Positions 22,599 to 36,035 of a DNA stretch of 49,215 bases are shown here, one piece after another. Position numbers and translations under genes: made by a program. Origin of the DNA: an uncultured Deferribacteres bacterium (lineage in GTDB: Bacteria; Zhuqueibacterota; Zhuqueibacteria; Zhuqueibacterales; Geothermadaptataceae); contig CAXHAT010000034.1 in NCBI GenBank assembly GCA_964014485.1, positions 1 to 49,215 of the forward strand. The letters are read 5' to 3'. Numbering within the stretch: position 1 is the first letter of the stretch; every line of letters starts with the position of its first letter. The notes under the pieces are model-generated. The model had not been told where the DNA came from. It was given only the letters and a program-made list of their open reading frames with translations, and made no database searches.

Positions 22599-23594
22599 AT
22601 GAACACGGGGAAACAGAAATTGCCGCAGAAACCGCGCGTTTTTATCAGCCACGCCTGGGAAGACAAGCCAACCGTCTACCGCCTCGAGGAAAAGCTGCGC
22701 CAGGCCGGGGCGGAAGTCTGGGTTGACCACAGCGCAGCCCGGGCGGGCGACAACTTGCCAAAGCGTATTAGTGAAGCGCTGGCCTGGTGTTCCTGCCTGC
22801 TGCTCGTTTGGTCTGAACACGCCGAAAAATCCCATTGGGTGGAACTGGAATGGAGCAACGCCGTCTCCCTGCGCAAATTGATCATCCCCTGCCTGCTCGA
22901 TGGCCGCGCCACCCCGCCCATTCTCGCCAGCACCCTACACGCGCCTTTTAAGGATTTTGATTTGGGCTTGCAGCAAATCTGCGCCGCATTGGGCATGAGA
23001 ATCCTTGCGCGGGAGCCTGTTGTTGAGACACCTGTTCCAAAATCTGAAAATCCGCCGCCAAATGTCATTCCCGCGCAGGCGGGAATCCAGAAAACTGTGC
23101 CGCTACAACCAATTTTCAGAACAGAAAGCCGGACGCTTTCTGAAGACGATGTAGAGCAAATGCTCGCTAGGCACGGTTTCTTTGATAGTCGTAAAAATTC
23201 AAGCGGGAAAGGCTTTGACAACGATTTTAAGCTGATCGAGCGACAAGGCAAAAAGTTGGTGCTTGATCGCGCCAGCGGCCTGACTTGGCAGCAATCAGGC
23301 TCGTCCGAATATTTGAACTATAAGAACGCAGAAGCTTATGTCAAAGATTTGAACAAAAAGACGTTCGCGGGTTACCGCGACTGGCGCTTGCCGACGCTGG
23401 AAGAAGCGATGTCGTTGATGGAGCCTCAAAAAAACAGGGAAGACTTGTACATAGCCCCGGTCTTTGACGCGAAACAAGAATGGATTTGGACGGCGGATAA
23501 AGCGTCGCCAGGAGCTTGGCCTATTAATTTCATCAATGGTTGCCCCGATTGGTTTACCCTCGTCCCTAGCTACGTTCGCGCCGTTCGTTCCTGA
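22599..23594 (+). CDS. TIR domain plus Lcl/DUF1566 (C-type-lectin-like) protein; putative DGR target
   Basis: RVFISHA..D, WVD, S.WVELEW (TIR with putative catalytic Glu); D..SGLTWQ, DWRLPTLEE, WIWTAD, YVRAVR (DUF1566). Confidence 0.9.
   Translation: MNTGKQKLPQKPRVFISHAWEDKPTVYRLEEKLRQAGAEVWVDHSAARAGDNLPKRISEALAWCSCLLLVWSEHAEKSHWVELEWSNAVSLRKLIIPCLLDGRATPPILASTLHAPFKDFDLGLQQICAALGMRILAREPVVETPVPKSENPPPNVIPAQAGIQKTVPLQPIFRTESRTLSEDDVEQMLARHGFFDSRKNSSGKGFDNDFKLIERQGKKLVLDRASGLTWQQSGSSEYLNYKNAEAYVKDLNKKTFAGYRDWRLPTLEEAMSLMEPQKNREDLYIAPVFDAKQEWIWTADKASPGAWPINFINGCPDWFTLVPSYVRAVRS
23064..23090 (+). repeat. In-frame REP half-element inside the TIR-Lcl linker (encodes VIPAQAGIQ)
   Basis: GTCATTCCCGCGCAGGCGGGAATCCAG; same family as 17741 and 26622. 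Confidence 0.85.
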
Positions 23595-24549: not shown

Positions 24550-26193
24550 TTGGCGGACAAGCAAAACACAAATAATCGTCTCGCTCTCTGGCTGCCGGTG
24601 GCGGCTGTGATTGTTGCTGCACTGATTACAACGTACAAAATCTCCTGCGACGCCGGGTCACCACAATTCGTCTTGACTGACAAAAGCTTCCACTCGGACA
24701 AAATCATCACCGTGCGGTCCGCCAATGACGCCGCCCGTAAGAACAAAGCGTTGTTCGCCGAAATCGACGGTTTTCGCATGGTCGGCGAGCCGGTGAAGCC
24801 GCGCAAGGAAAACGGCGAATGGTATTGGCGCTTGCCCGCCGATGCGTTTCCTGATTCCGCCCGCACGGAAGCCGTGCATGAACTGCGGCTCGGGTTCGAT
24901 CTCGGGAAAATGACTTCCGCCGGTAAAATCGTTTTCGACCGCGGCGACCCGGAAGCCGGGGTAACGATTTCTGACGGCACATTTGGGGGAAAAGATATCT
25001 TCGCAGAATTCAGCGACGACAATCCGGACGTCAACCAAAAAATTAAGGCCGAGATTTCGTTTCGTTATCGCGGAGAGACCAAGACGATCCCTGTGCCGTT
25101 GCGCCGTATCACCGACGAAACCGGCGAGACCTTTTACGAACTGGAGTACAGCCTGCAAAGCCTGCCGCTCTACACGCCTGGCGATCCCGAATTTTACCAG
25201 CCTTATTTTGCTCTGGTGATTACTGATGAGGCGGGCAACCAGTTTCGGCGCGTCGCCACTTACAATAAATTTATTGCAACGGGCGAGGAATATTTTGGCA
25301 ACCGCGACATTGAAGCAAAACTTGAGCGGCTCGACGCGGAAACCTTTGCCCGGCGCTACAACAAATCGCCGGAAATTTTAGACATTCCCGCGCCGCATAA
25401 CGAAGCTTCCGGCAATCCTCTAATCGCGCTGAGAATCGTTTTGCGGGAACGAACCTACGTCAAACTCTCATGGACCCGTTTACCGCCCGAACTGCGCCCG
25501 GAACAGGAGCGTTTCACCATCTTTGGCGACGAGCGCGAAATCGGCGTATCCTTTGACACCACCTTTGTGGATGATACGCCGTTCCCGACTGAAGAGCGCG
25601 ACTACCGCGTGCTCGCAGAGGGCACCGACGGCAAGGAATATCCCAGCAACATCGCCAAAACAAGCCCGGACACAACCGCGCCGCCGCCCCCGGCGATTAC
25701 ACTGCGCAAAGAGCCGCGAACGCTGGCTGAAAGCGATATTCAGGCGATTCTAGATCAATACGATTTTTGGCACACAGGAAAATATGATTTAGGTTGGGAA
25801 AACCCGGACGGCAAAGGCGTGGACAATCGCTTTCAGCGGCGGCAAAACGGCGCGTTGATTCATGACGCGACCACTGGTCTGACCTGGCAGCAATCCGGCT
25901 CCGACAGCGCGCTAACCTACGCCGAAGCGGAAAAATACATTGACCGGCTCAATCAGGAGCGATTCGGCGGCTTTAGCGACTGGCGCTTACCGACGCTGGA
26001 GGAAGCGATGTCGTTGATGGAGCCCCGGCGCAGCAGTGCGCGCTTGTACATCGATCCGATCTTCGACGCGAAGCAGCCCTGGATTTGGACGGCGGACAAA
26101 GCGTCGTCGGGCGCCTGGTACGTTTATTTCTATCTTGGCTACTGCGATTGGTACGGCCTCGTCTTCGGCTACGTTCGTGCAGTGCGTTTCTGA
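24550..26193 (+). CDS. Membrane-anchored protein with beta-sandwich region and C-terminal Lcl/DUF1566 domain; putative DGR target
   Basis: N-terminal hydrophobic helix; Pro-rich linker; D.TTGLTWQ, DWRLPTLEE, WIWTAD, YVRAVR. Confidence 0.85.
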   Translation: MADKQNTNNRLALWLPVAAVIVAALITTYKISCDAGSPQFVLTDKSFHSDKIITVRSANDAARKNKALFAEIDGFRMVGEPVKPRKENGEWYWRLPADAFPDSARTEAVHELRLGFDLGKMTSAGKIVFDRGDPEAGVTISDGTFGGKDIFAEFSDDNPDVNQKIKAEISFRYRGETKTIPVPLRRITDETGETFYELEYSLQSLPLYTPGDPEFYQPYFALVITDEAGNQFRRVATYNKFIATGEEYFGNRDIEAKLERLDAETFARRYNKSPEILDIPAPHNEASGNPLIALRIVLRERTYVKLSWTRLPPELRPEQERFTIFGDEREIGVSFDTTFVDDTPFPTEERDYRVLAEGTDGKEYPSNIAKTSPDTTAPPPPAITLRKEPRTLAESDIQAILDQYDFWHTGKYDLGWENPDGKGVDNRFQRRQNGALIHDATTGLTWQQSGSDSALTYAEAEKYIDRLNQERFGGFSDWRLPTLEEAMSLMEPRRSSARLYIDPIFDAKQPWIWTADKASSGAWYVYFYLGYCDWYGLVFGYVRAVRF

Positions 26194-26834: not shown

Positions 26835-27638
26835 ATGGCTGAAAAATATGAAACCATTTCGGTGGAGCAGTTTCAGGAGCAATTTCTGGATTTGCACGCC
26901 AAGCTCACGTCCTATCTTTTCCGTCTCACCGCCAACCGGCAGGACGCTGAGGATTTGGCGCACGACGCTTACCTGAAGGCGCTGCGCAATCTGGCCGGGT
27001 TCGCCGGAAAGTCGAGCCTGAAAACGTGGCTTTTTTCCATTGCCACCAATTTGGCCAAGGATCATTTTCGCGTGCGCCAGCGCTGGCAGGTCGATTCGCA
27101 GGATCATTGCCGGGAAGATACGCAGGCCTCGCCGGAGAAGGTCAATCGTATGCGCGAGATTGTGGCGGAGTCGCCGGCGGAAGCGTATGAATTTCAGGAA
27201 CACATCGATTATTGCTTTACTTGCATCGCCAAAACACTGGAAATCGAGCAGCAATTGATCTTGATTTTGAAAGAAATCTACACTTTCAAAGTGTCAGAGA
27301 TCATGGAGATTTTGGGGCAGACGGAAGGCCGGGTCAAGTACGCGCTTTCGCAGGCGCGCAAACGCATTTCCGAGATTTACGAGCAGCGCTGCGAGCTGGT
27401 GAACAAGAGCGGGGCCTGCTGGCAATGCTCCGAGATCAATGATTTTATCCGCCCCGCGCGCGACGGCAAACAACAGCTTGTCCAGCTTCAATTGCGCCGT
27501 GAAGCAAAAAAAGGCGCGTCAAAAGAGCGACTGCTTGATCTGCGCACGGAATTGGTAAAAGGCGTCGATTCGCTCGGTTCGCCGGGTGCGGCGTTACACG
27601 AATATTTGCTGACGCTGATTCCGGAAAGTTTGCGTTGA
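26835..27638 (+). CDS. ECF sigma-70 factor with Cys-rich C-terminal extension
   Basis: DAEDLAHD.Y, F.GKSSLKTWLFSIATN; region 4; CFTC and CELVNKSGACWQC. Confidence 0.9.
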   Translation: MAEKYETISVEQFQEQFLDLHAKLTSYLFRLTANRQDAEDLAHDAYLKALRNLAGFAGKSSLKTWLFSIATNLAKDHFRVRQRWQVDSQDHCREDTQASPEKVNRMREIVAESPAEAYEFQEHIDYCFTCIAKTLEIEQQLILILKEIYTFKVSEIMEILGQTEGRVKYALSQARKRISEIYEQRCELVNKSGACWQCSEINDFIRPARDGKQQLVQLQLRREAKKGASKERLLDLRTELVKGVDSLGSPGAALHEYLLTLIPESLR

Positions 27639-27676
27639 ATTTGGGGTTGTCCCAAAGCATGGTTTCCGAATGAGAG

Positions 27677-27704
27677 ACACATCATGTCGTACGACATGAT
27701 GTGT
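27677..27704. repeat. 28-bp perfect palindrome
   Basis: ACACATCATGTCGT|ACGACATGATGTGT. Confidence 0.9.
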
Positions 27705-27958
27705 GACGCCATAAAAAATATTACGGTTTTGGAGAGCCCACTACCCCGGCTCATCCGTTAAGCGTCATTCTCGCCCCCGCCTGCCCGAGAATGACCGAGA
27801 TTCAGATATGAAAAAGCATAGCATTCCTTGATTCATTTTATCAAACACTGGACGTTTGACGCCGAAGCGCTTCTTCCTGAACTCGCCACGCTCCTCTTGG
27901 ATAGAAAATCCCCCCTTCGTACTTTTCGAAAACGCATAAAAATTCACACGCAAACTCT

Positions 27959-28155
27959 CTACCTGACACTTTTTTGTAAACCGCCTTCTCGAGCCGTTGA
28001 AAGGTCCAGTTTTGTCATTCTGAAGGAATCTTTGTTATCGCCCAGTACAGATCATGCTCAAAAGTTCAAGGGTCGGGTCAAAAAAGATGCTTCCAGCATG
28101 ACAATTCCGGTCTTTTTCGCCAGTCTTAGAAGGCTATACAAAAAGTGTCAGGTAG
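27959..28155 (+). mobile_element. ~195-bp MITE, family A copy 1
   Basis: TIRs CTACCTGACACTTTTT(T)GTA / TACAAAAAGTGTCAGGTAG; core GTCATTCTG..TTGTTATCGCCCAGTAC..CAGCATGAC. Confidence 0.88.
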
Positions 28156-28182
28156 TGAACACGCAAAAACAAGGGGCGTCCC

Positions 28183-28785
28183 ATGTATCGCCAGCGCATG
28201 AAAACTATTCTCGTCGACCTTTTGGTTGTTTTTACCGGCGTTTACGCAGCGTTCATGCTCGACGATTTCCGCAAGCAACAAGAGATCGAAAACAAGCGAC
28301 AGCAAATCGTCGACGCTTTGTTGACCGACCTCAAGGCAACGCAGGAAGGGCTTGACAAAGGCGTTCCGCAGATTAAGTCCATTTTTGACGGTTTTCTGGA
28401 AAAATATAAAAACGGCGAGGCTCCCGGGATAAATCACCTCGGATTTGACGTTGCGTTCCGCAGCGGCATGTGGGAAGCCATGCTGCAGTCCAGCGGCGTC
28501 GACGTTTTGGAGGTGGATTTTATTTTGCAAATGGAGGCGTACTATGAAAACCTTGAAGCGTTTCGCGCCAAGATGGAATATTTTCGCGATCTCAGCGCTC
28601 GGCAAATTGTCCCGAATCTTGGCAAGGACAGCACGTTTTTTTATGAACCGGAATCAAAAACTCTTCGCGAGCCTTACCGCTGGTACTTGAGCGCCGTCGT
28701 CGCCTTCACGCAAGGGATGACCGAGATACAAGAACGCAACCGAGCATTGGTTGAGAAACTGACGCAATTGTCTACCATTGAGTAA
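28183..28785 (+). CDS. Hypothetical membrane-anchored protein (N-terminal TM followed by coiled coil)
   Basis: DLLVVFTGVYAAFMLD TM, then helical domain; start 28183 or 28198. Confidence 0.75.
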   Translation: MYRQRMKTILVDLLVVFTGVYAAFMLDDFRKQQEIENKRQQIVDALLTDLKATQEGLDKGVPQIKSIFDGFLEKYKNGEAPGINHLGFDVAFRSGMWEAMLQSSGVDVLEVDFILQMEAYYENLEAFRAKMEYFRDLSARQIVPNLGKDSTFFYEPESKTLREPYRWYLSAVVAFTQGMTEIQERNRALVEKLTQLSTIE

Positions 28786-28921
28786 TCGCCGCCGCTCGTT
28801 TTTTTCCACAAATTCAATTTCGCATACAACCTTCCAGCCCCCAAAAGTCCCTATACAATAATAGCTCGCCGAAAAATCGCATCCCGGAGCAAGGCTCAAG
28901 GGAAACATTTTCTAAAATTGC

Positions 28922-29500
28922 ATGAACAGTATTGCGCAATATCTGAACAAGCTTGAAGAGCGGAAACTCGTCCGATCGTTTCTCAAAAAACGTGACGAAC
29001 AAGCGTTTCGAAGCCTGTATCGAAAATATACGCCCGGCGTTTATCGGCTGGCGCTCAGGCTGTTGAATGGAGACGAAGCGCTGGCAGAAGAGACGGTGCA
29101 GGAAGGTTGGACGCGCGCCGTACAAAATCTGCCGAAATTCCGCTGGCAATCGAGTTTCCGAACATGGCTGCACTCGATTATCGTGCATTGTTGCCAGGAA
29201 CAGTTCCGCCGAAAAAATCGAAAAAATTGTGACATTGACGAGTTGATCGGGGATTCTGATGAACCGGCTGAATTACACGGCGATTCAATCGATCTGGAAA
29301 ACGCCTTCAATCAATTGCCCGACGGCTATCGGCAGGTTTTGATTTTGCACGATCTCGAGGGCTACACGCACAAGGAAATCGGGCTGTTGCTTGGCGTTCA
29401 ACCCGGCACCAGCAAGAGTCAGCTTTCGCAAGCGCGCAAAGCAATGCGCCGCTATTTGCGGCCGGAAACCGCCGGTGAAGCAGGAGATTTTTATGACTGA
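28922..29500 (+). CDS. ECF sigma-70 factor
   Basis: DEQAF..LY, AEETVQEGW, FRWQSSFRTWL, LPDGYRQVLILHDLEGYTHKEI..GTSKSQLSQAR. Confidence 0.95.
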   Translation: MNSIAQYLNKLEERKLVRSFLKKRDEQAFRSLYRKYTPGVYRLALRLLNGDEALAEETVQEGWTRAVQNLPKFRWQSSFRTWLHSIIVHCCQEQFRRKNRKNCDIDELIGDSDEPAELHGDSIDLENAFNQLPDGYRQVLILHDLEGYTHKEIGLLLGVQPGTSKSQLSQARKAMRRYLRPETAGEAGDFYD

Positions 29501-30110
29501 AAAAATGAATGATCCCGAAGACTTACAACCGCGGGAAAGAGCCGTTTTAGAAAAACTGTTTAGCGAAAAAACGCCGCCGAAAACGCTCGAAGACAAAACC
29601 GTTTCGGCTTTGAAAAGCAGAGGGCTGGTGCGCAGCGCTTCTGCGTCTTACATCCCCTATTTTCTCAAGCCGTTGGGGGCGTTCGCGGCGGCGGCGCTTG
29701 TTTTTGCGGCGGGATTCTGGGCTGGAAATCGGGAAGAACCGCAGACGCCGCAAAAGTCTTCCAAACCGGTTTTCGCACTGTTCATTTACGACACGGAGGC
29801 GATGACGGAAAATGATGCGGTGCGCACGCGCGTTTATAGCCAGTGGGTCGGCGAAACGGCGGCTTCCGGGCGGTTCGCGTCCGGTACAAAGCTGGAGCAA
29901 AGCGGGCGCATAATCCGGCCCGCCGCGAATAGACTTGAAGTGATTGATCGAAAAGCGGAAACGCAGTGCGGTGATCTGCGGGGCTACATTTTGCTTGAAG
30001 CGGAGAACATGGACGAAGCCGTCAAAATCGCTTCGACAAACCCGCATTTGCGATACAAGGGGGTTTTAGAAGTCAGAGAACTGTTCCGATTTAACGGTTT
30101 AAACGATTGA
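29493..30110 (+). CDS. Putative anti-sigma factor: short cytoplasmic N-terminus, TM helix, YCII/DGPF-like domain
   Basis: overlaps the sigma stop, CAGGAG RBS; AAAALVFAAGFWAG TM; GYILLEAENMDEAVKIA..PH...G.LEVR. Confidence 0.75.
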   Translation: MTEKMNDPEDLQPRERAVLEKLFSEKTPPKTLEDKTVSALKSRGLVRSASASYIPYFLKPLGAFAAAALVFAAGFWAGNREEPQTPQKSSKPVFALFIYDTEAMTENDAVRTRVYSQWVGETAASGRFASGTKLEQSGRIIRPAANRLEVIDRKAETQCGDLRGYILLEAENMDEAVKIASTNPHLRYKGVLEVRELFRFNGLND

Positions 30111-30132
30111 TTTCATAACCAAAGGAGGCGAC

Positions 30133-30888
30133 ATGTACAACAAGCTGTTTCTCAAAACCTTAACCACATTTTTTGTACTGATTGGCGTTGCGCTGGCGGC
30201 GGCCGGAGAAAGCAAGCGCGACAGCGAAATCGAAGTTCTGCCGCGTGAATTGGAAGTTGAGCTGGCATTGAGCGCGGCGCCAAAACATTTGCGTGCGGAA
30301 GCGGGCGTTTACGTGCTGGAGAAAAACGGCTACGCACAAGTGCGGGAAAGCAAAAACGGTTTTATTTGCATCGTTACTCGCCCCGATTTCGGTATTCAAG
30401 AAGGCGCTTTTGAACCAATGTGCTTGAGCCCGGAAGCTGTGCGCGTGTACCTTGAAGTTATCCTTGAAAATGCAAAGCTGCGCGCGCAAGGCAAGAGTTT
30501 GGAAGAATTGAACCGAATTATCAGCAATGGTTATGCAACAGGAAAATACGAAACGCCTTCAAAGCCTGGCGTGATTTATATGCTGTCGCCAATAAACCGC
30601 GTGGGTGCAAACACAGGTAAAAATTTCTTGCCCGGCGCAGGCGACGGCGTCATTCCCGTACATCCCCACATCATGTATTTTGGATTTAACGTTTCGAGGG
30701 AAGAGCTTGGCTTGTTGGGCATGAGAGATCAAAAGCGTCCGGCTTGGCTGCCGCTTTTGACGGGACAGAATCGTCCGTTTTCGTGGATTGTGACTTTCAT
30801 CGACCCCAAAGCCGTGCAGGAAATTATGAACGCTCCGGGAAGCATTGCACTGACGAAAAAAATGCAAAAATACTTAAAGCAAGGATGA
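30133..30888 (+). CDS. Secreted protein of unknown family, paralog 1
   Basis: AAGGAGG RBS, signal peptide; LALSAAP, NGFIC, YMLS, PHIM motifs shared with 33200 and 34307. Confidence 0.85.
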   Translation: MYNKLFLKTLTTFFVLIGVALAAAGESKRDSEIEVLPRELEVELALSAAPKHLRAEAGVYVLEKNGYAQVRESKNGFICIVTRPDFGIQEGAFEPMCLSPEAVRVYLEVILENAKLRAQGKSLEELNRIISNGYATGKYETPSKPGVIYMLSPINRVGANTGKNFLPGAGDGVIPVHPHIMYFGFNVSREELGLLGMRDQKRPAWLPLLTGQNRPFSWIVTFIDPKAVQEIMNAPGSIALTKKMQKYLKQG

Positions 30889-30986
30889 AAGTCATGATCG
30901 GTTTTACGTTGACACAGGTTGTTTTAGACTACGCGATTTATATTGAACCAATCGGTATAACTGGTTGGATTTGGTCATGGTTTTAA
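30885..30986 (+). CDS. Small hydrophobic peptide 1 (33 aa; alternative start 30894)
   Basis: ATGA overlap with upstream stop; MKVMIGFTLTQVVLDYAIYIEPIGITGWIWSWF; resembles peptide at 31219. Confidence 0.6.
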   Translation: MKVMIGFTLTQVVLDYAIYIEPIGITGWIWSWF

Positions 30987-30997
30987 ATTGAAACGCT

Positions 30998-31188
30998 CTA
31001 CCTGACACTTTTTTGTATACTGCATTTTCGAGCCGTCTAAAGGTCCCGTTTTGTCATTCTGGAAGAATCTTTGTTATCGCCCAGTACAGATCATGCTCAA
31101 AAGTTCAAGGGTACGGATCAAAAAAGATGCTTTCAGCATGACAATTCCGGCCTCTTTCGCCAACATCAGAAACCTACACAAAAAGTGT
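30998..31188 (+). mobile_element. MITE family A copy 2 (right TIR degenerate)
   Basis: collinear with 27959-28155. Confidence 0.85.
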
Positions 31189-31218
31189 AATCCCAAAATC
31201 AAAATGGAGCATTATGAA

Positions 31219-31296
31219 ATGTTTTCAATCATTCTGAGCTTTAGCATTTTCATCGATCCGGGCGGCCTCACAAGTTTGATCATCTGGTTATTGTAA
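31219..31296 (+). CDS. Small hydrophobic peptide 2 (25 aa; alternative start 31204)
   Basis: GGAG RBS at 31206-31209; MFSIILSFSIFIDPGGLTSLIIWLL. Confidence 0.6.
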   Translation: MFSIILSFSIFIDPGGLTSLIIWLL

Positions 31297-31470
31297 GACT
31301 AACAATCGGCTTTGGTAAAGCGGCGCTTTTATCTGGGTTTTGAAAACGAAAATGTATAGCCGACATTCCGCACATCAATTGTCGCATTTGAATTCATTTG
31401 TTGAAAGAGCACTTTTTCGACAATTTTAGTGCGGCTGCAAGACATTTTTTGCGCCTGATGAGCGTTTGCC

Positions 31471-31598
31471 TCTCATTAGCCCCGGCTTTCAAGCCGGGGT
31501 TTTGGTAAAATCACACTTTTCTTCTCCCCGCCGCGCTTGCGCGGAGAAGGGGGGAAAGGACGCTTTTGTCACCGCCCTGAAGGACGGCGCTAATGAGA
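31471..31598. repeat. TCTCATTAGC..GCTAATGAGA REP-like unit, copy 2
   Basis: same termini and three-hairpin layout as 3348-3482. Confidence 0.8.
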
Positions 31599-31684
31599 GA
31601 AAGAAATGATTTCCATCTCCAATTCTTGTGTGCGGAATGTCGGGTATAGAGACGCTGACAATTGTTTTACATAATGACGGGTTG

Positions 31685-32944
31685 ATGATGAGTGACGCCA
31701 AAACATGGTTCGTGCGCGGGCTTAAAACCTTGCTAAGGTTGGTTGTTGTCTCGGTTCTGCTGATTGGCGGATGCTGGATCACCAGACCGTCCGTTCCGGT
31801 GAACGCTTCGAAGCTGCAGGCGGAAACCGTCGCATCACCGCAGTATCGCGCGGCGGCGGATTCAGCGACTTTTTTGTTCAAAAATGTCAGCCGGGAACTC
31901 AAGCTGCCGTCCGTATCCATCGCTGTCAGTGTTGGCGATGAACTGATTTGGAGCGCAGCATTTGGCTGGGCAGACGTAAGCGCTGAAAAGGCGGCGGGAC
32001 TCGGAACGCGCTATCGAGCGGGAAGTGTTTCAAAATCCATGACCGGCCTTGTAGCTGCAAAGCTCGTCGCTGCCGGAAAGCTGGATTTGGACAAGCCGGT
32101 TCATGAATATTTGCCGAATTTTCCAGAAAAGCGCTGGGCGTTTACACCGCGTCAACTAGGGGCGCACACCGCCGGGATTCGTCACTACGCCGCTCCAGGA
32201 GAAACGGGTTTTTTCGCCGAACAATTTTCTTCCCGTCAATATGCGTCCGTTGGAGAAGCACTGGAAATATTTCGAGATGATCCTCTGCTTTTTGAACCGG
32301 GCGCAGGATTTCAATATTCAACGCATGGTTTTACGCTGTTGAGCGCCGTTTTGCAAAAAGCGGCGAACAAGGACTTTCTTGATCTTGTCAACGAAACAAT
32401 CTGGCGACCGCAGGGAATGAAGGACACTCGCCCGGATGACTTTTCTCAAGAAGATCCAGAGCGCGCCGTTCCATATACCGCGATCGGCGGGCGGCTTTTC
32501 CATTGGGAAGGGCCAAATCCAAGCTACAAATGGGCTGGCGGGGGAATTCTGACCGCACCGACAGATTTGGTACGCATGGGAGGCGCGTTTTTGACTGATC
32601 GCGTCGTCTCGTCCGTTTTATGCGATTCTCTTATTGCGCCAATTCCGCTTGCCAACGGCGCGGCCAATCCGCAAGGATATGCTTTGGGGTGGCGGGTGCA
32701 GAAAGTTGCTGAATTGCTTGGCTCCGCCGATTCACTCCGCGTTCTTCATCATGGCGGTTCTTCGCCCGGCGGATCGTCATTCCTACTCTTAGTTCCAAGC
32801 GGCAAAGTTGCCGCAGCGGCGATGACCAATCTTTCTCTTTCTAGAGCCGGGCCGCTGCGCCGCGCCGTCTTCCAAATCGCAGGGCTTTTTCGCGACGTCG
32901 CTTTGAATGATATGAATTCACACTTGAAGATGAACAAAAACTGA
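31685..32944 (+). CDS. Serine hydrolase, beta-lactamase class C / AmpC-like family
   Basis: GSVSK (SxxK), HTAGIRHY, LLFEPG..F.YS, HHGG; N-terminal anchor or signal peptide. Confidence 0.92.
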   Translation: MMSDAKTWFVRGLKTLLRLVVVSVLLIGGCWITRPSVPVNASKLQAETVASPQYRAAADSATFLFKNVSRELKLPSVSIAVSVGDELIWSAAFGWADVSAEKAAGLGTRYRAGSVSKSMTGLVAAKLVAAGKLDLDKPVHEYLPNFPEKRWAFTPRQLGAHTAGIRHYAAPGETGFFAEQFSSRQYASVGEALEIFRDDPLLFEPGAGFQYSTHGFTLLSAVLQKAANKDFLDLVNETIWRPQGMKDTRPDDFSQEDPERAVPYTAIGGRLFHWEGPNPSYKWAGGGILTAPTDLVRMGGAFLTDRVVSSVLCDSLIAPIPLANGAANPQGYALGWRVQKVAELLGSADSLRVLHHGGSSPGGSSFLLLVPSGKVAAAAMTNLSLSRAGPLRRAVFQIAGLFRDVALNDMNSHLKMNKN

Positions 32945-33055
32945 CGCCAGGGAGCAACGCTTCGTGACTCAGCAAACGTTATTTACTGATGTTACCGTCT
33001 TCAAAACCGGGACTGTCCAAAAACAGAAAACTTGCATAGCGATGTACAACATGTC

Positions 33056-33083
33056 GTAGGAGTTCAAGATTTTGAACCCCTAC
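33056..33083. repeat. GTAG-type REP palindrome, class 2
   Basis: GTAGGAGTTCAAGATTTTGAACCCCTAC, with the same ACAACATGTC flank as the 17890 copy. Confidence 0.88.
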
Positions 33084-33112
33084 CGCACGCCTCACTTAAA
33101 TACATCCTTTTT

Positions 33113-33140
33113 ATCCGTTTTCTCCCGCCCAAACGTCTAA
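33113..33140 (+). promoter_or_regulatory. Putative ECF sigma promoter ATCCG-N16-CGTCTAA
   Basis: matches 26419-26446; 60 bp before the ATG at 33200. Confidence 0.65.
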
Positions 33141-33199
33141 ACGACGGCCGCCGATAGATCAATTTATTTTTGAATCTCAAAACCAGGGAGAAATTCGTC

Positions 33200-33889
33200 A
33201 TGAAAGCTTTTAAACCTGCTGCGTCGAAATTCTTGTCGTCGTTTGTTTGTTTACTTGCAATCGTTCTGGCCTCAGCCTTTTCTTTTCCGGCTTCAATGCC
33301 AACGGAAGAAACTATTGAATCCAAAAATATCAAGCCCATGCCTCGCGATCAGGAAATCGCCATGGCTTTGAGCGCAGCGCCGGTGCATTTGCGCAAGGAT
33401 GCGACGGTTTATGTGCTTGAAAACGGCAAGTATGCCAAAGTCCGAAAAGGGACGAACGGCTTTCATTGTCTGGTGGTGCGCTTCGGCGATATTATCGCGC
33501 CGTACGCTTATGATCAGGAAGGCGCCGAAACTTTGATGCAGGCGGATTTCCGCCGCGCCGAGCTGATTGCTCAAGGCAAAAAGCTTCAAGAAGCGCAGAA
33601 GATTATTGCGAAGGAATTCAAATCAGGCAAGCTGATCGCGCCGCGCAGGTCGGGCGTGGCCTACATGCTCTCCGCTGATTTTGTCAGGCATGACCACAAG
33701 ACCGGCAAAGAGTCGCAGGTATTTCCGCCGCACGTGATGTTTTACGCGCCGTACTTGAAGAATTCAGACATTGGCGCTTTGCCGGAGCATTTTAACAGCC
33801 CGGATCACGTTTATGTGCTTAATGAAGGTCAACCCGGAGCGCTGCTGATCGTCGTGCCGAAATCAAATCCGGCGGAGACGAAGAAGTAA
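33200..33889 (+). CDS. Secreted protein of unknown family, paralog 2
   Basis: AGGGAG RBS; signal peptide; ALSAAP.HLR, GTNGFHC, YMLS, PHVM. Confidence 0.85.
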   Translation: MKAFKPAASKFLSSFVCLLAIVLASAFSFPASMPTEETIESKNIKPMPRDQEIAMALSAAPVHLRKDATVYVLENGKYAKVRKGTNGFHCLVVRFGDIIAPYAYDQEGAETLMQADFRRAELIAQGKKLQEAQKIIAKEFKSGKLIAPRRSGVAYMLSADFVRHDHKTGKESQVFPPHVMFYAPYLKNSDIGALPEHFNSPDHVYVLNEGQPGALLIVVPKSNPAETKK

Positions 33890-34018
33890 TTCGAAGCCGA
33901 AATGTTGGCTAGCTTTTTGAGAAGCGCGGTGGAATCGGAGGGGCAAGCGGCGGTCGGCGAAAAAAGAAAACGAGAGAACCAGTCTGACTGCCGCTTTTTT
34001 TGAATTTTGGAAAGAATA

Positions 34019-34290
34019 ATGAAAAAGCGTTTGATTGCTTTCTTGGTGGTTTTTCCGACAATCAATCTGGATAAAATTCGAAAAAGCCACAGCGACGGCG
34101 GCATATTTTCATGGACGCCAATCGCAAGAGACGTTGCAAGCTCAGGCGAGCTATGCAATACCTGCGACTCATATCAAATCAAACTTGAAGAATAGAAAAT
34201 CGAGACCAGTCATTATTTGCGATTTTGGAAAAGAGAGTCAAACGACGGTTGGAAAATTGTCGTCGATTTGGCCAAGTCAACACATTCTTT
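34019..34290 (+). pseudogene. DUF4440/NTF2-like pseudogene
   Basis: FSWTP..RDVASSGEL...*...YLRFWKRESNDGWKIVVD; in-frame TAG at 34193-34195 and shortened N-terminus. Confidence 0.7.
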
Positions 34291-34306
34291 TTCGGAGAAG
34301 AGTCAA

Positions 34307-35002
34307 ATGATAAAATTACGAAAGTTATCTGTTTTTCTAATTCTTACTTACATATTTGCAGCGGACGTTTTCGGCCAAGCGGAAAATCCTTATGAAAAAA
34401 TGGCGCCGATTGAGGCGTACCTGATGAAAGATCGGATGCGGGAAATCGAAATTGCGCGCAGTTCTGCTCACGCTGAAATCACCGCCGATGCGACGGTGAT
34501 GGTTTTAACCAAGAACGGCTATGAAGTGGCTGTGGAAGGAACGAACGGTTTTATTTGTCTTGTTTTACGCTCTTTCACCGGCCCGTGGGCGAATCCGGAA
34601 TTCTGGAACCCGAAACACATCGATCCTATTTGTTATAATCCCGCCGCCGTGCGCACGGTTCTGCCGCAAGACACGATGCGGACGAATCTTGCCCTAAAAG
34701 GCCTCTCGAAAGAGCGGATGCGTGAAGAAATCTTGAAAGCCTACGGTTTGGGGAAATTGAAAGCGCCTGAAAACGGCGCGTTGGCGTTTATGATGTCAAA
34801 AAATCAAATGCTCGGCGACGCTATCGGACACTGGCGGCCGCATATTATGCTTTACATACCTAACGCCACCTATTTTGAATTGGGCGCTATTGGACAATTC
34901 GCGCCGGGCGTGCCATTCGACGGCGAAAATGAAATTATGACCACAATTTTGATTCCTGTACCGCACTGGTCGGACGGTACGCCGGAAGCCGGACAGCCTT
35001 GA
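34307..35002 (+). CDS. Secreted protein of unknown family, paralog 3
   Basis: GGAG RBS, ATG 34307, signal peptide; GTNGFICLV.R, PIC, FMMS, PHIM. Confidence 0.85.
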   Translation: MIKLRKLSVFLILTYIFAADVFGQAENPYEKMAPIEAYLMKDRMREIEIARSSAHAEITADATVMVLTKNGYEVAVEGTNGFICLVLRSFTGPWANPEFWNPKHIDPICYNPAAVRTVLPQDTMRTNLALKGLSKERMREEILKAYGLGKLKAPENGALAFMMSKNQMLGDAIGHWRPHIMLYIPNATYFELGAIGQFAPGVPFDGENEIMTTILIPVPHWSDGTPEAGQP

Positions 35003-35127
35003 GCAGACAAGCGCTTTTTGATATTTTCTTCGATCATTTTCCTTGCCAACTGGTCTTTTTTGTGCAATGCTCTGTTTTGCAAGATTCTTGTGAAAACCGT
35101 CCAATTTGAAATAAGGAGATCACTAGG

Positions 35128-35438
35128 CTGCGAAAAACGACCGGCTCTGCTATTGCGCTCATTGTTATTTCCTCCCAACCCAAAATCTCTCAAGCCCAAG
35201 ACGGTTGACGTGGCCGGAAAAGGCGGAGAATTTGCAAGTTTTGCCAAAGGATTGGCCCGGCGCACGACTGCGCTTCCCCATGCGCGAGTTTGCACGCGCG
35301 CTTGGCGTTGATTGCGCGCATTGTCACGTCGGCGAATCGGGCAATAAACCTGAAGCTGAGAAGTATTACAAGAAGTCGCTCGAATTAGATCCGAGCAATC
35401 AAAACGCCAAGGACATGCTGAAGAAATTGCAGGAGTGA
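35128..35438 (+). pseudogene. Frameshifted, internally deleted c-type cytochrome (reaction-centre cytochrome-like) / TPR gene
   Basis: AAGGAG RBS; out-of-frame signal-like segment; NLQVLP...M..F.RALGVDCAHCHV joined directly to the TPR end YYKKSLELDPSNQNA. Confidence 0.65.
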
Positions 35439-35441
35439 CCG

Positions 35442-36035
35442 TCACTTTTGAGCGGTGGAACGCAGAAAATCTTTAAACTGTTCGCTGCTATAGTCCGCCA
35501 TCCCCAACTTTCTATAAACGATTCGTCCCTCCGCGTCGATCACAAATGTCGCCGGGATAGTATTGTTCAAAAACGCTTTCGGCACGCTTCCAGCCAAGCG
35601 GTAGACTGGGAATGTGTATGGACGGTCATTGAGAAAATCTTTTACCTGAGATAAACTCTGGTCTGTCGCAACGGTGACAATTGAAACGTTTTCAGACTGC
35701 ATCATCTCAAAAAGCCCCTGAATTGCCGGAAGCTCAGCAAGGCAGGGCGGGCACCAGGTCGCCCAGAAATTCAGGAAAACCGTTTTGCCCCGAAAATCTT
35801 CAAGATTCGCAGATTCCCCACTCAGGGTTCGGAGCGGCATATTCAAATCCGCTTCAACCGGCGCGCTGTCTAACTTGGGAATTTTGGGCTGAAACAATCC
35901 AACGGCGAACGCGGCGCGATGCAAAAAAGTGCTGATCGGCCTATTCCAGCCCGTCACATTCAGCAGCACAAAAACCCCAATCAGTAACGCCCACTCTAAA
36001 ACCGACCGTTTCCAACTCTTTTTATTTTTTTCCAC
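35442..36035 (-). CDS. TlpA-family thiol-disulfide oxidoreductase
   Basis: TM anchor; NFWATWCPPC..ELP; IPATFVID..G. Confidence 0.93.
   Translation of the reverse strand: MEKNKKSWKRSVLEWALLIGVFVLLNVTGWNRPISTFLHRAAFAVGLFQPKIPKLDSAPVEADLNMPLRTLSGESANLEDFRGKTVFLNFWATWCPPCLAELPAIQGLFEMMQSENVSIVTVATDQSLSQVKDFLNDRPYTFPVYRLAGSVPKAFLNNTIPATFVIDAEGRIVYRKLGMADYSSEQFKDFLRSTAQK

Follow-up and report, generated by a model that had tools for sequence, protein, structure and literature searches.

The window, by which we mean the whole stretch of 49,215 nucleotides that was analysed, contains a cluster of plus-strand genes that begins with an ECF sigma factor and continues with a predicted anti-sigma factor, with a predicted secreted protein that we refer to as "family X", and with two small hydrophobic reading frames, which we refer to as "P1" and "P2"; the two frames are separated by a truncated MITE, and they are followed by a second MITE, a serine hydrolase and two pseudogenes. 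The positions of these features are listed in Table 1.

Table 1. Features of the cluster around P1 and P2, with positions in the window.
Feature	Position	Strand	Remarks
ECF-type autoregulatory promoter-like site, T[AG]CAACC-N14/15-G[TG]C[AC]C	28823..28856	+	Motif shared by relatives
ECF sigma factor	28922..29500	+	Pfam Sigma70_r2 and Sigma70_r4_2 above cut-off
Predicted anti-sigma factor, one hydrophobic helix and C-terminal YCII	29493..30110	+	Pfam YCII, E 4e-6
Family X, predicted secreted, conserved Cys pair and PHxM	30133..30888	+	No Pfam or NCBIfam match
P1	30885..30986	+	33 aa with the start at 30885 (overlapping as ATGA) or 30 aa with the start at 30894
MITE, right end truncated	30993..31188	.	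196 bp; left 7-bp target site at 30986-30992, no right repeat
P2	31204..31296	+	30 aa with the start at 31204 or 25 aa with the start at 31219
Second MITE family, intact inverted ends	31360..31643	.	Present in 20 full-length copies
Serine hydrolase, beta-lactamase-like (LACTB/CubicO type), N-terminal hydrophobic stretch	31685..32944	+	PF00144, E 5e-54
DUF4440/SnoaL pseudogene	34019-34282		Signal-peptide-like start and C-terminal strands, with a stop
c-type cytochrome/TPR pseudogene	about 35120-35438		Start codon lost, frameshifted, middle deleted; two ends left

The gene that follows the sigma factor is likely an anti-sigma factor, a role that we assign from its position and its build; it has matches in 14 other genomes among 167 of the phylum. 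The excerpted text of PMC8999054 mentions YCII proteins beside ECF genes, and no peptides. The genes of the sigma factor, the anti-sigma factor and family X, together with P1, lie no more than 22 nt apart, so that P1 is probably part of the sigma transcript. The promoter-like motif that is located at 28823, ahead of the sigma gene, recurs across the phylum before such ECF/YCII-anti-sigma pairs: of the 11 relatives in which the start of the sigma gene could be placed, 7 carry it upstream of that gene, which lends support to the description of the operon as "ECF-controlled" in the first-pass annotation of this DNA. Since ECF genes are commonly autoregulated, the motif at 28823 is presumably the sigma factor's own promoter, and it likely drives the sigma factor, the anti-sigma factor, family X and P1.

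When the genome was scanned with a matrix derived from five relatives' sites, with its own site excluded, the site at 28823 ranked second of 16,764,692 positions; one of the five training sites, as well as one row of the anti-sigma alignment, comes from an unpublished genome (G016), so that the matrix score rests partly on that genome. The matrix reveals no second promoter-like site in the region 27500-35500; a higher-scoring site on contig C35 could belong to a member of the regulon. At 26835-27638 lies a second sigma factor that resembles the ECF type and has a long C-terminal extension containing Cys; a similar-looking gene occurs near family X in a Rhodothermales locus (L029).

Reading frames, starts and composition of P1 and P2

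Translated from 30885, P1 reads MKVMIGFTLTQVVLDYAIYIEPIGITGWIWSWF, and P2, translated from 31204, reads MEHYEMFSIILSFSIFIDPGGLTSLIIWLL. In the ORF list of the window, which contains 145 ORFs of at least 80 aa, the two frames appear as the tails of TTG-started ORFs of 80 and 81 aa, as the first-pass annotation had remarked; the gene call for P1 in the protein library (P0026) starts at 30894. P1 had also been described there as coupled to the upstream gene through an ATGA, and the ATG at 30885 does overlap the TGA of the family X gene; the Shine-Dalgarno sequence AAGGA, at 30881-30885, is placed for the second ATG, at 30894, with an energy of -5.0 kcal/mol vs -0.2 kcal/mol for the ATG at 30885 (the anti-Shine-Dalgarno sequence being the 16S end of the same genome). 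Overlaps of this type are common, as 302 of the 2,976 long ORFs of the genome (about 10%) end in ATGA. The GGAG site that had been proposed for P2 is indeed present, at 31206-31209, where it serves the ATG at 31219 with -5.6 kcal/mol; the ATG at 31204 is without a Shine-Dalgarno site. The energies of P1 and P2 are near those of two family X paralogues (-6.6 and -8.0 kcal/mol), and, with 25-33 aa and -5.0/-5.6 kcal/mol, both frames have the size (up to about 50 codons) and the ribosome-binding site expected of small membrane proteins.

The synonymous codons of P2 follow the coding pattern of the genome (p 0.0024 vs the intergenic model); the codon use of P1 is closer to the intergenic model and is located at the 5th percentile among real gene ends. 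Both frames are hydrophobic, with GRAVY values of 1.0 (P1) and 1.2 (P2), and the best 19-residue hydropathy is 1.16 in P1, in a stretch with two acidic residues, and 1.84 in P2; by this measure, hydropathy speaks clearly for a putative membrane helix in P2 and marginally in P1. The AlphaFold model of P1, computed from a two-sequence alignment, places helices at residues 3-20 and 22-32, and is weak (pLDDT 73.7, pTM 0.34). Neither peptide contains Cys or basic residues, and the net charge of both is negative; the last 10 residues are free of charged residues and include four aromatic residues in P1 and one in P2. The locus is found in three DNA runs from one study, which may include the source sample, and none of the runs listed is an RNA run; the contigs of the three DNA runs over P1, P2 and the junction of the truncated MITE are identical to the assembly, with no variants.

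Likeness of P1 and P2, and the search for their relatives

Compared from 30894 and from 31204, respectively, P1 and P2 consist of 30 codons each and align without gaps, with their starts and stops in register, 8 identities and a BLOSUM62 score of 39, while their DNA is identical at 43 of 93 bases (46%). The gapless alignment over divergent DNA that the first-pass annotation had noticed is thus reproduced, and its view of the two as paralogues holds as well: in a six-frame scan of the genome (16,757,252 positions), P1 and P2 are mutual top non-self matches, with a score of 45 vs 39 and 41 for the next matches, and they are again each other's top non-self match among 544,350 stop-anchored tails. 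Their local score of 47 was reached by none of 3000 shuffles, and a composition-preserving null gives a probability of chance likeness of 0.0013 family-wise (genome-wide), or 1.6e-5 for the pair only. Seven of the 3,785 neighbouring intergenic small-ORF pairs outscore P1/P2, all of them DNA repeats with 64-94% DNA identity; among the 3,314 pairs with DNA identity below 60%, P1/P2 come first with a score of 37, and the runner-up scores 23.

The similarity is located at the protein level, since DNA identity is only 46% and is lowest at third positions: over the last 24 codons, 35 of 72 bases are identical, of which 14, 14 and 7 (of 24 each) occur at codon positions 1, 2 and 3, and six of the eight identical residues are encoded by different codons. 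The sense frame scores 39, and the five other frames score between -5 and -21, all of them with stops; the conserved information of P1 and P2 is located in the sense frame. In a neutral-divergence simulation at the same DNA identity, a fraction of 0.00076 of 100,000 pairs stayed open and reached the score, a result that is supporting, not independent, since the two frames had been chosen for their likeness. The two reading frames are old paralogues, whose likeness goes beyond chance and has been kept at the protein level.

Relatives of the pair were sought at several distances. A two-sequence profile, compared with 1.84 billion protein representatives, where a query of 30 residues surfaces only from about 35 bits upwards, gave four matches, i.e. 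P1 and three longer proteins with repeated matches, two of which were read and found to be low-complexity; a word-indexed protein search gave one candidate, P1 itself. The best non-self match in 29 genomes of the order has an E value of 0.53, and no homologue was found in 167 genomes of the phylum, where seven non-self matches occur at E <= 0.1, the best of them at 0.011; the genomes searched include no congener of the source. In class samples around the Ignavibacteria (301), Rhodothermales (301) and Thermoanaerobaculia (181) records, 5, 4 and 0 genomes, respectively, have a match at E <= 0.02, and each of the 9 matches falls in another gene, either in antisense or in a different frame. Homologues of P1/P2 are also absent from 10 single genomes and from the viral contigs, plasmids and phages that were searched, and none was found in the PDB sequences, PHROGs, NCBIfam, Pfam or the ESM Atlas. 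A pattern scan of metagenomes gave 22 matches, of which a single one (L126) starts with Met, is short and falls outside a long ORF; its tail is polar and its score 32, and it was taken as chance. In the open-access literature searched, nothing was found on the pair.

Family X, the serine hydrolase and their loci elsewhere

Three paralogues of family X are located in the window (30133-30888, 33200-33889 and 34307-35002), and 440 related stretches occur in GTDB genomes, the best 80 of the 440 being mostly from Acidobacteria. The structural model of family X has a pLDDT of 86.5 and no clear PDB match; in a fold search, no Foldseek match was obtained at E <= 0.001 and the best VIA Z was 6.0 over 44 residues, although the absence of a Foldseek match does not establish a new fold. 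Family X may be an unknown enzyme, with loci that are without precursors, and, being widespread and with no clear structural match, it may be a better target than P1/P2. The gene is intact up to P1. A possible -1 frameshift in the A-run around 30855, by which family X and P1 would be joined, was dismissed because four homologues have the same terminal helix at their ends.

Of 79 loci that were inspected downstream of family X, one has a short hydrophobic ORF within 450 nt, unrelated to P1/P2, and about half (L022-L097), many of them from soil Acidobacteria, have a DUF4199 gene directly after family X. DUF4199 was not found in the genome studied here; tandem DUF4199 pairs occur in its sister family (L163-L171). 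When all 183 non-self loci were scanned again, no match to a small ORF appeared in the vicinity of an anti-sigma gene or of family X. Because the relatives' loci are without one, a P1/P2-like peptide is no standing part of the anti-sigma module or of the family X module. Conserved small ORFs at syntenic loci, which had been named in the first-pass annotation as a check, did not appear, in loci that are not truly syntenic, as the fetched relatives of the neighbouring genes are 30-43% identical and stand in other gene orders. Both genes that are pseudogenes in the window have counterparts near family X elsewhere: in Rhodothermales (locus L029), a SnoaL gene is located upstream of family X, and an intact, 250-aa form of the c-type cytochrome/TPR protein occurs near family X in genome G001.

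The serine hydrolase belongs to a broad group of the LACTB/CubicO type, with relatives that are up to 66-67% identical; no close relatives occur in 251 genomes. Its gene call in the protein library (P0030, 435 aa) begins inside the second MITE and is likely 16-17 codons too early.

Readings of the pair

The reading that we favour, with moderate confidence, is that P1 and P2 form an orphan pair of membrane-inserted accessory or modulating subunits, of 25-33 residues, that belong to an ECF envelope-stress operon. A stress signal would cause the membrane anti-sigma factor to free the sigma factor, and the freed sigma factor would transcribe the operon from 28823; the translation of P1 would be coupled to that of family X, and P1 and P2 would each insert in the inner membrane as a helix, a [DE]-P-x-G kink and a short helix. 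From there, they could act on one of the envelope proteins of the operon, as MgrB, SafA or CydX do; family X is the first-guess partner, for the sole reason that P1 is coupled to it. Later, the MITE and a deletion would have severed P2 from P1; at present, P2 would need read-through of the MITE hairpin.

This reading has precedents among the small single-helix membrane regulators and accessory subunits. According to the part of PMC12648545 available, MgrB, SafA, UgtS and CydX are also hydrophobic, shorter than 50 aa and located in, or right behind, an envelope-signalling operon, and such regulators can be confined to a single species, as in the case of SafA and UgtS, so that some of them are equally narrow in range as P1/P2; in general, prokaryotes hold many unannotated small membrane proteins (excerpt of PMC10903887). 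Unlike these regulators, with which they share no sequence match, P1 and P2 are tandem paralogues predicted from the sequence, in which the [DE]-P-x-G kink is acidic and basic residues are lacking. If translated, they add two to the orphan microproteins already on record, of note only for being an old pair of paralogues kept in an ECF regulon, and they offer a small and cheap test case, with two synthetic 30-mers and one predicted promoter, for small membrane modulators in the ECF regulons of uncultured marine bacteria.

The main alternative, though we consider it unlikely, is that P1 and P2 are relics left by deletions, either the leftover C-termini of a pair of membrane paralogues that were once longer or small genes in decay, so that the selection recorded in them is past. 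The main ground for this alternative is that the cluster is prone to deletion. The MITE between P1 and P2, which the first-pass annotation had recognised, is real and belongs to a family with 94 full-length copies in the genome, where the outer right end is kept in 90 copies and the 7-bp duplication in 80; the copy at 30993-31188 is without both, and this loss points to a deletion, which took the right end of the MITE together with host DNA and ends 15 nt before the first ATG of P2. The second MITE, after P2, is flanked by a 6-bp duplication (31354-31359 and 31644-31649); neither it nor the truncation of the first had been remarked upon in the first-pass annotation. The DUF4440/SnoaL and c-type cytochrome/TPR pseudogenes of the same cluster are also products of deletion; moreover, the C-termini of paralogues would likewise align at the stop, the codon use of P1 is atypical, and the likeness between P1 and P2 is located mostly within a 15-residue core.

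Against a relic origin, the frames of P1 and P2 are open, with starts and Shine-Dalgarno sites, whereas both true pseudogenes have stops or frameshifts, and the intact family X gene reaches up to P1. No parent protein was found among the 1.84 billion representatives, in Pfam at E 10 or among the genome's own ORFs. The C-terminal helix of DUF4199 (PF13858), which reads TFI[DEH]PFPIG[LF], is loosely similar to P1/P2, but its P and G are separated by two additional residues, and its tail is basic; as a parent, DUF4199 obtains an hhalign probability of 1.4%, from a low-diversity alignment of 12 sequences, and no Pfam match at E 10.

The first-pass annotation had suggested that the peptides could be pheromone or RiPP precursors, with the neighbouring proteins as their processing enzymes; in its fuller form, this alternative holds that P1 and P2 are precursors of secreted signals, cut by the serine hydrolase or by family X and sensed by the outer YCII domain of the anti-sigma factor. 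We find it improbable. The two frames are short, hydrophobic paralogues, whose core is conserved while the aromatic C-terminus (W-x-W-x-W-F in P1) varies, and their neighbours include a membrane sensor pair and a hydrolase that is predicted to be protease-like. In SHP/ComS precursors, an acidic residue precedes the hydrophobic C-terminus, as is also seen in P1 and P2. These precursors, of the Rgg/RRNPP systems, resemble the pair in being hydrophobic and 17-30 residues long, and the streptococcal SHP precursors are of comparable size (PMC13361665, in excerpt). The neighbourhood differs: P1/P2 are next to an ECF/anti-sigma pair, and a Pfam scan of the 35 gene-like ORFs, out of the 145 of the window, found no RiPP modifying enzyme, no peptide exporter and no HTH-TPR receptor, the only TPR near P1/P2 being a stub in the pseudogene at 35205. 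The genome, which is 97% complete, yielded neither AgrB nor a C39 peptidase; the peptides are acidic and without Cys, the aromatic tail is absent from P2, and elsewhere the anti-sigma factor and family X, the latter at 79 loci, are without such peptides. On this evidence, both the precursor role and the processing role of the neighbours are unsupported. Were the peptides signals nonetheless, the ECF sigma factor would make them, and the hydrolase or family X would free their C-termini, feeding back on the anti-sigma factor; the prospect that P1/P2 are the first peptide-signal family read by YCII-type anti-sigma factors, in an ECF autoinduction loop of a two-membrane marine bacterium, is slight indeed, and it is only through a peptide-signal role that the pair would open a long-standing question.

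It is similarly improbable that the likeness of P1 and P2 arose by chance between two T-rich frames, or that it is the shadow cast in antisense by a minus-strand gene now decayed. Elsewhere, the best matches are mostly antisense shadows of real genes, which implies that the motif arises easily in that way, and one antisense frame shares its wobble position with the sense frame, so that the third-position pattern alone cannot separate the two; that antisense frame, however, has two stops inside the core of P1, the sense frame is the only one with a positive score, and the composition-preserving null argues against chance at the genome-wide level.

We judge it slightly less probable still that P1 and P2 are pore-forming peptides of the type I toxin kind, repressed by antisense RNA: like Ldr/Fst, Ibs, Hol_Tox and PepG1, they are small (<=70 aa), hydrophobic, tandem and missed by simple ORF lists (PMC2887945, in part), a minus-strand promoter-like site ends at 31290, and the N-terminus of P2 faintly resembles Hol_Tox (PF16935, E 1.3) and PepG1 (NF041589, E 0.21), but these matches reach 9.4 bits vs a cut-off of 23.3 and 11.2 bits vs 70, respectively, and P1 has none; known type I loci are spaced by >400 nt (same excerpt of PMC2887945), while P1 is coupled upstream, overlapping family X or starting 5 nt behind it, and P2 starts 316-331 nt behind it; the toxins have a charged or bulky C-terminal cluster, and the last 10 residues of P1 and P2 are uncharged, with four aromatic residues and one, respectively; the 5' regions of P1 and P2 fold no better than shuffles (z -0.38 and +1.01), promoter-like sites number 10 vs 6.0 +/- 2.5 expected, nothing lies above the gathering score in Rfam, stable folds occur only in the MITEs, and neither a structured leader nor a candidate antitoxin was seen.

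In a different part of the window, a TIR + Lcl_C protein adjoins a second Lcl_C protein (22599-23594 and 24550-26193), with a common 300-nt repeat.
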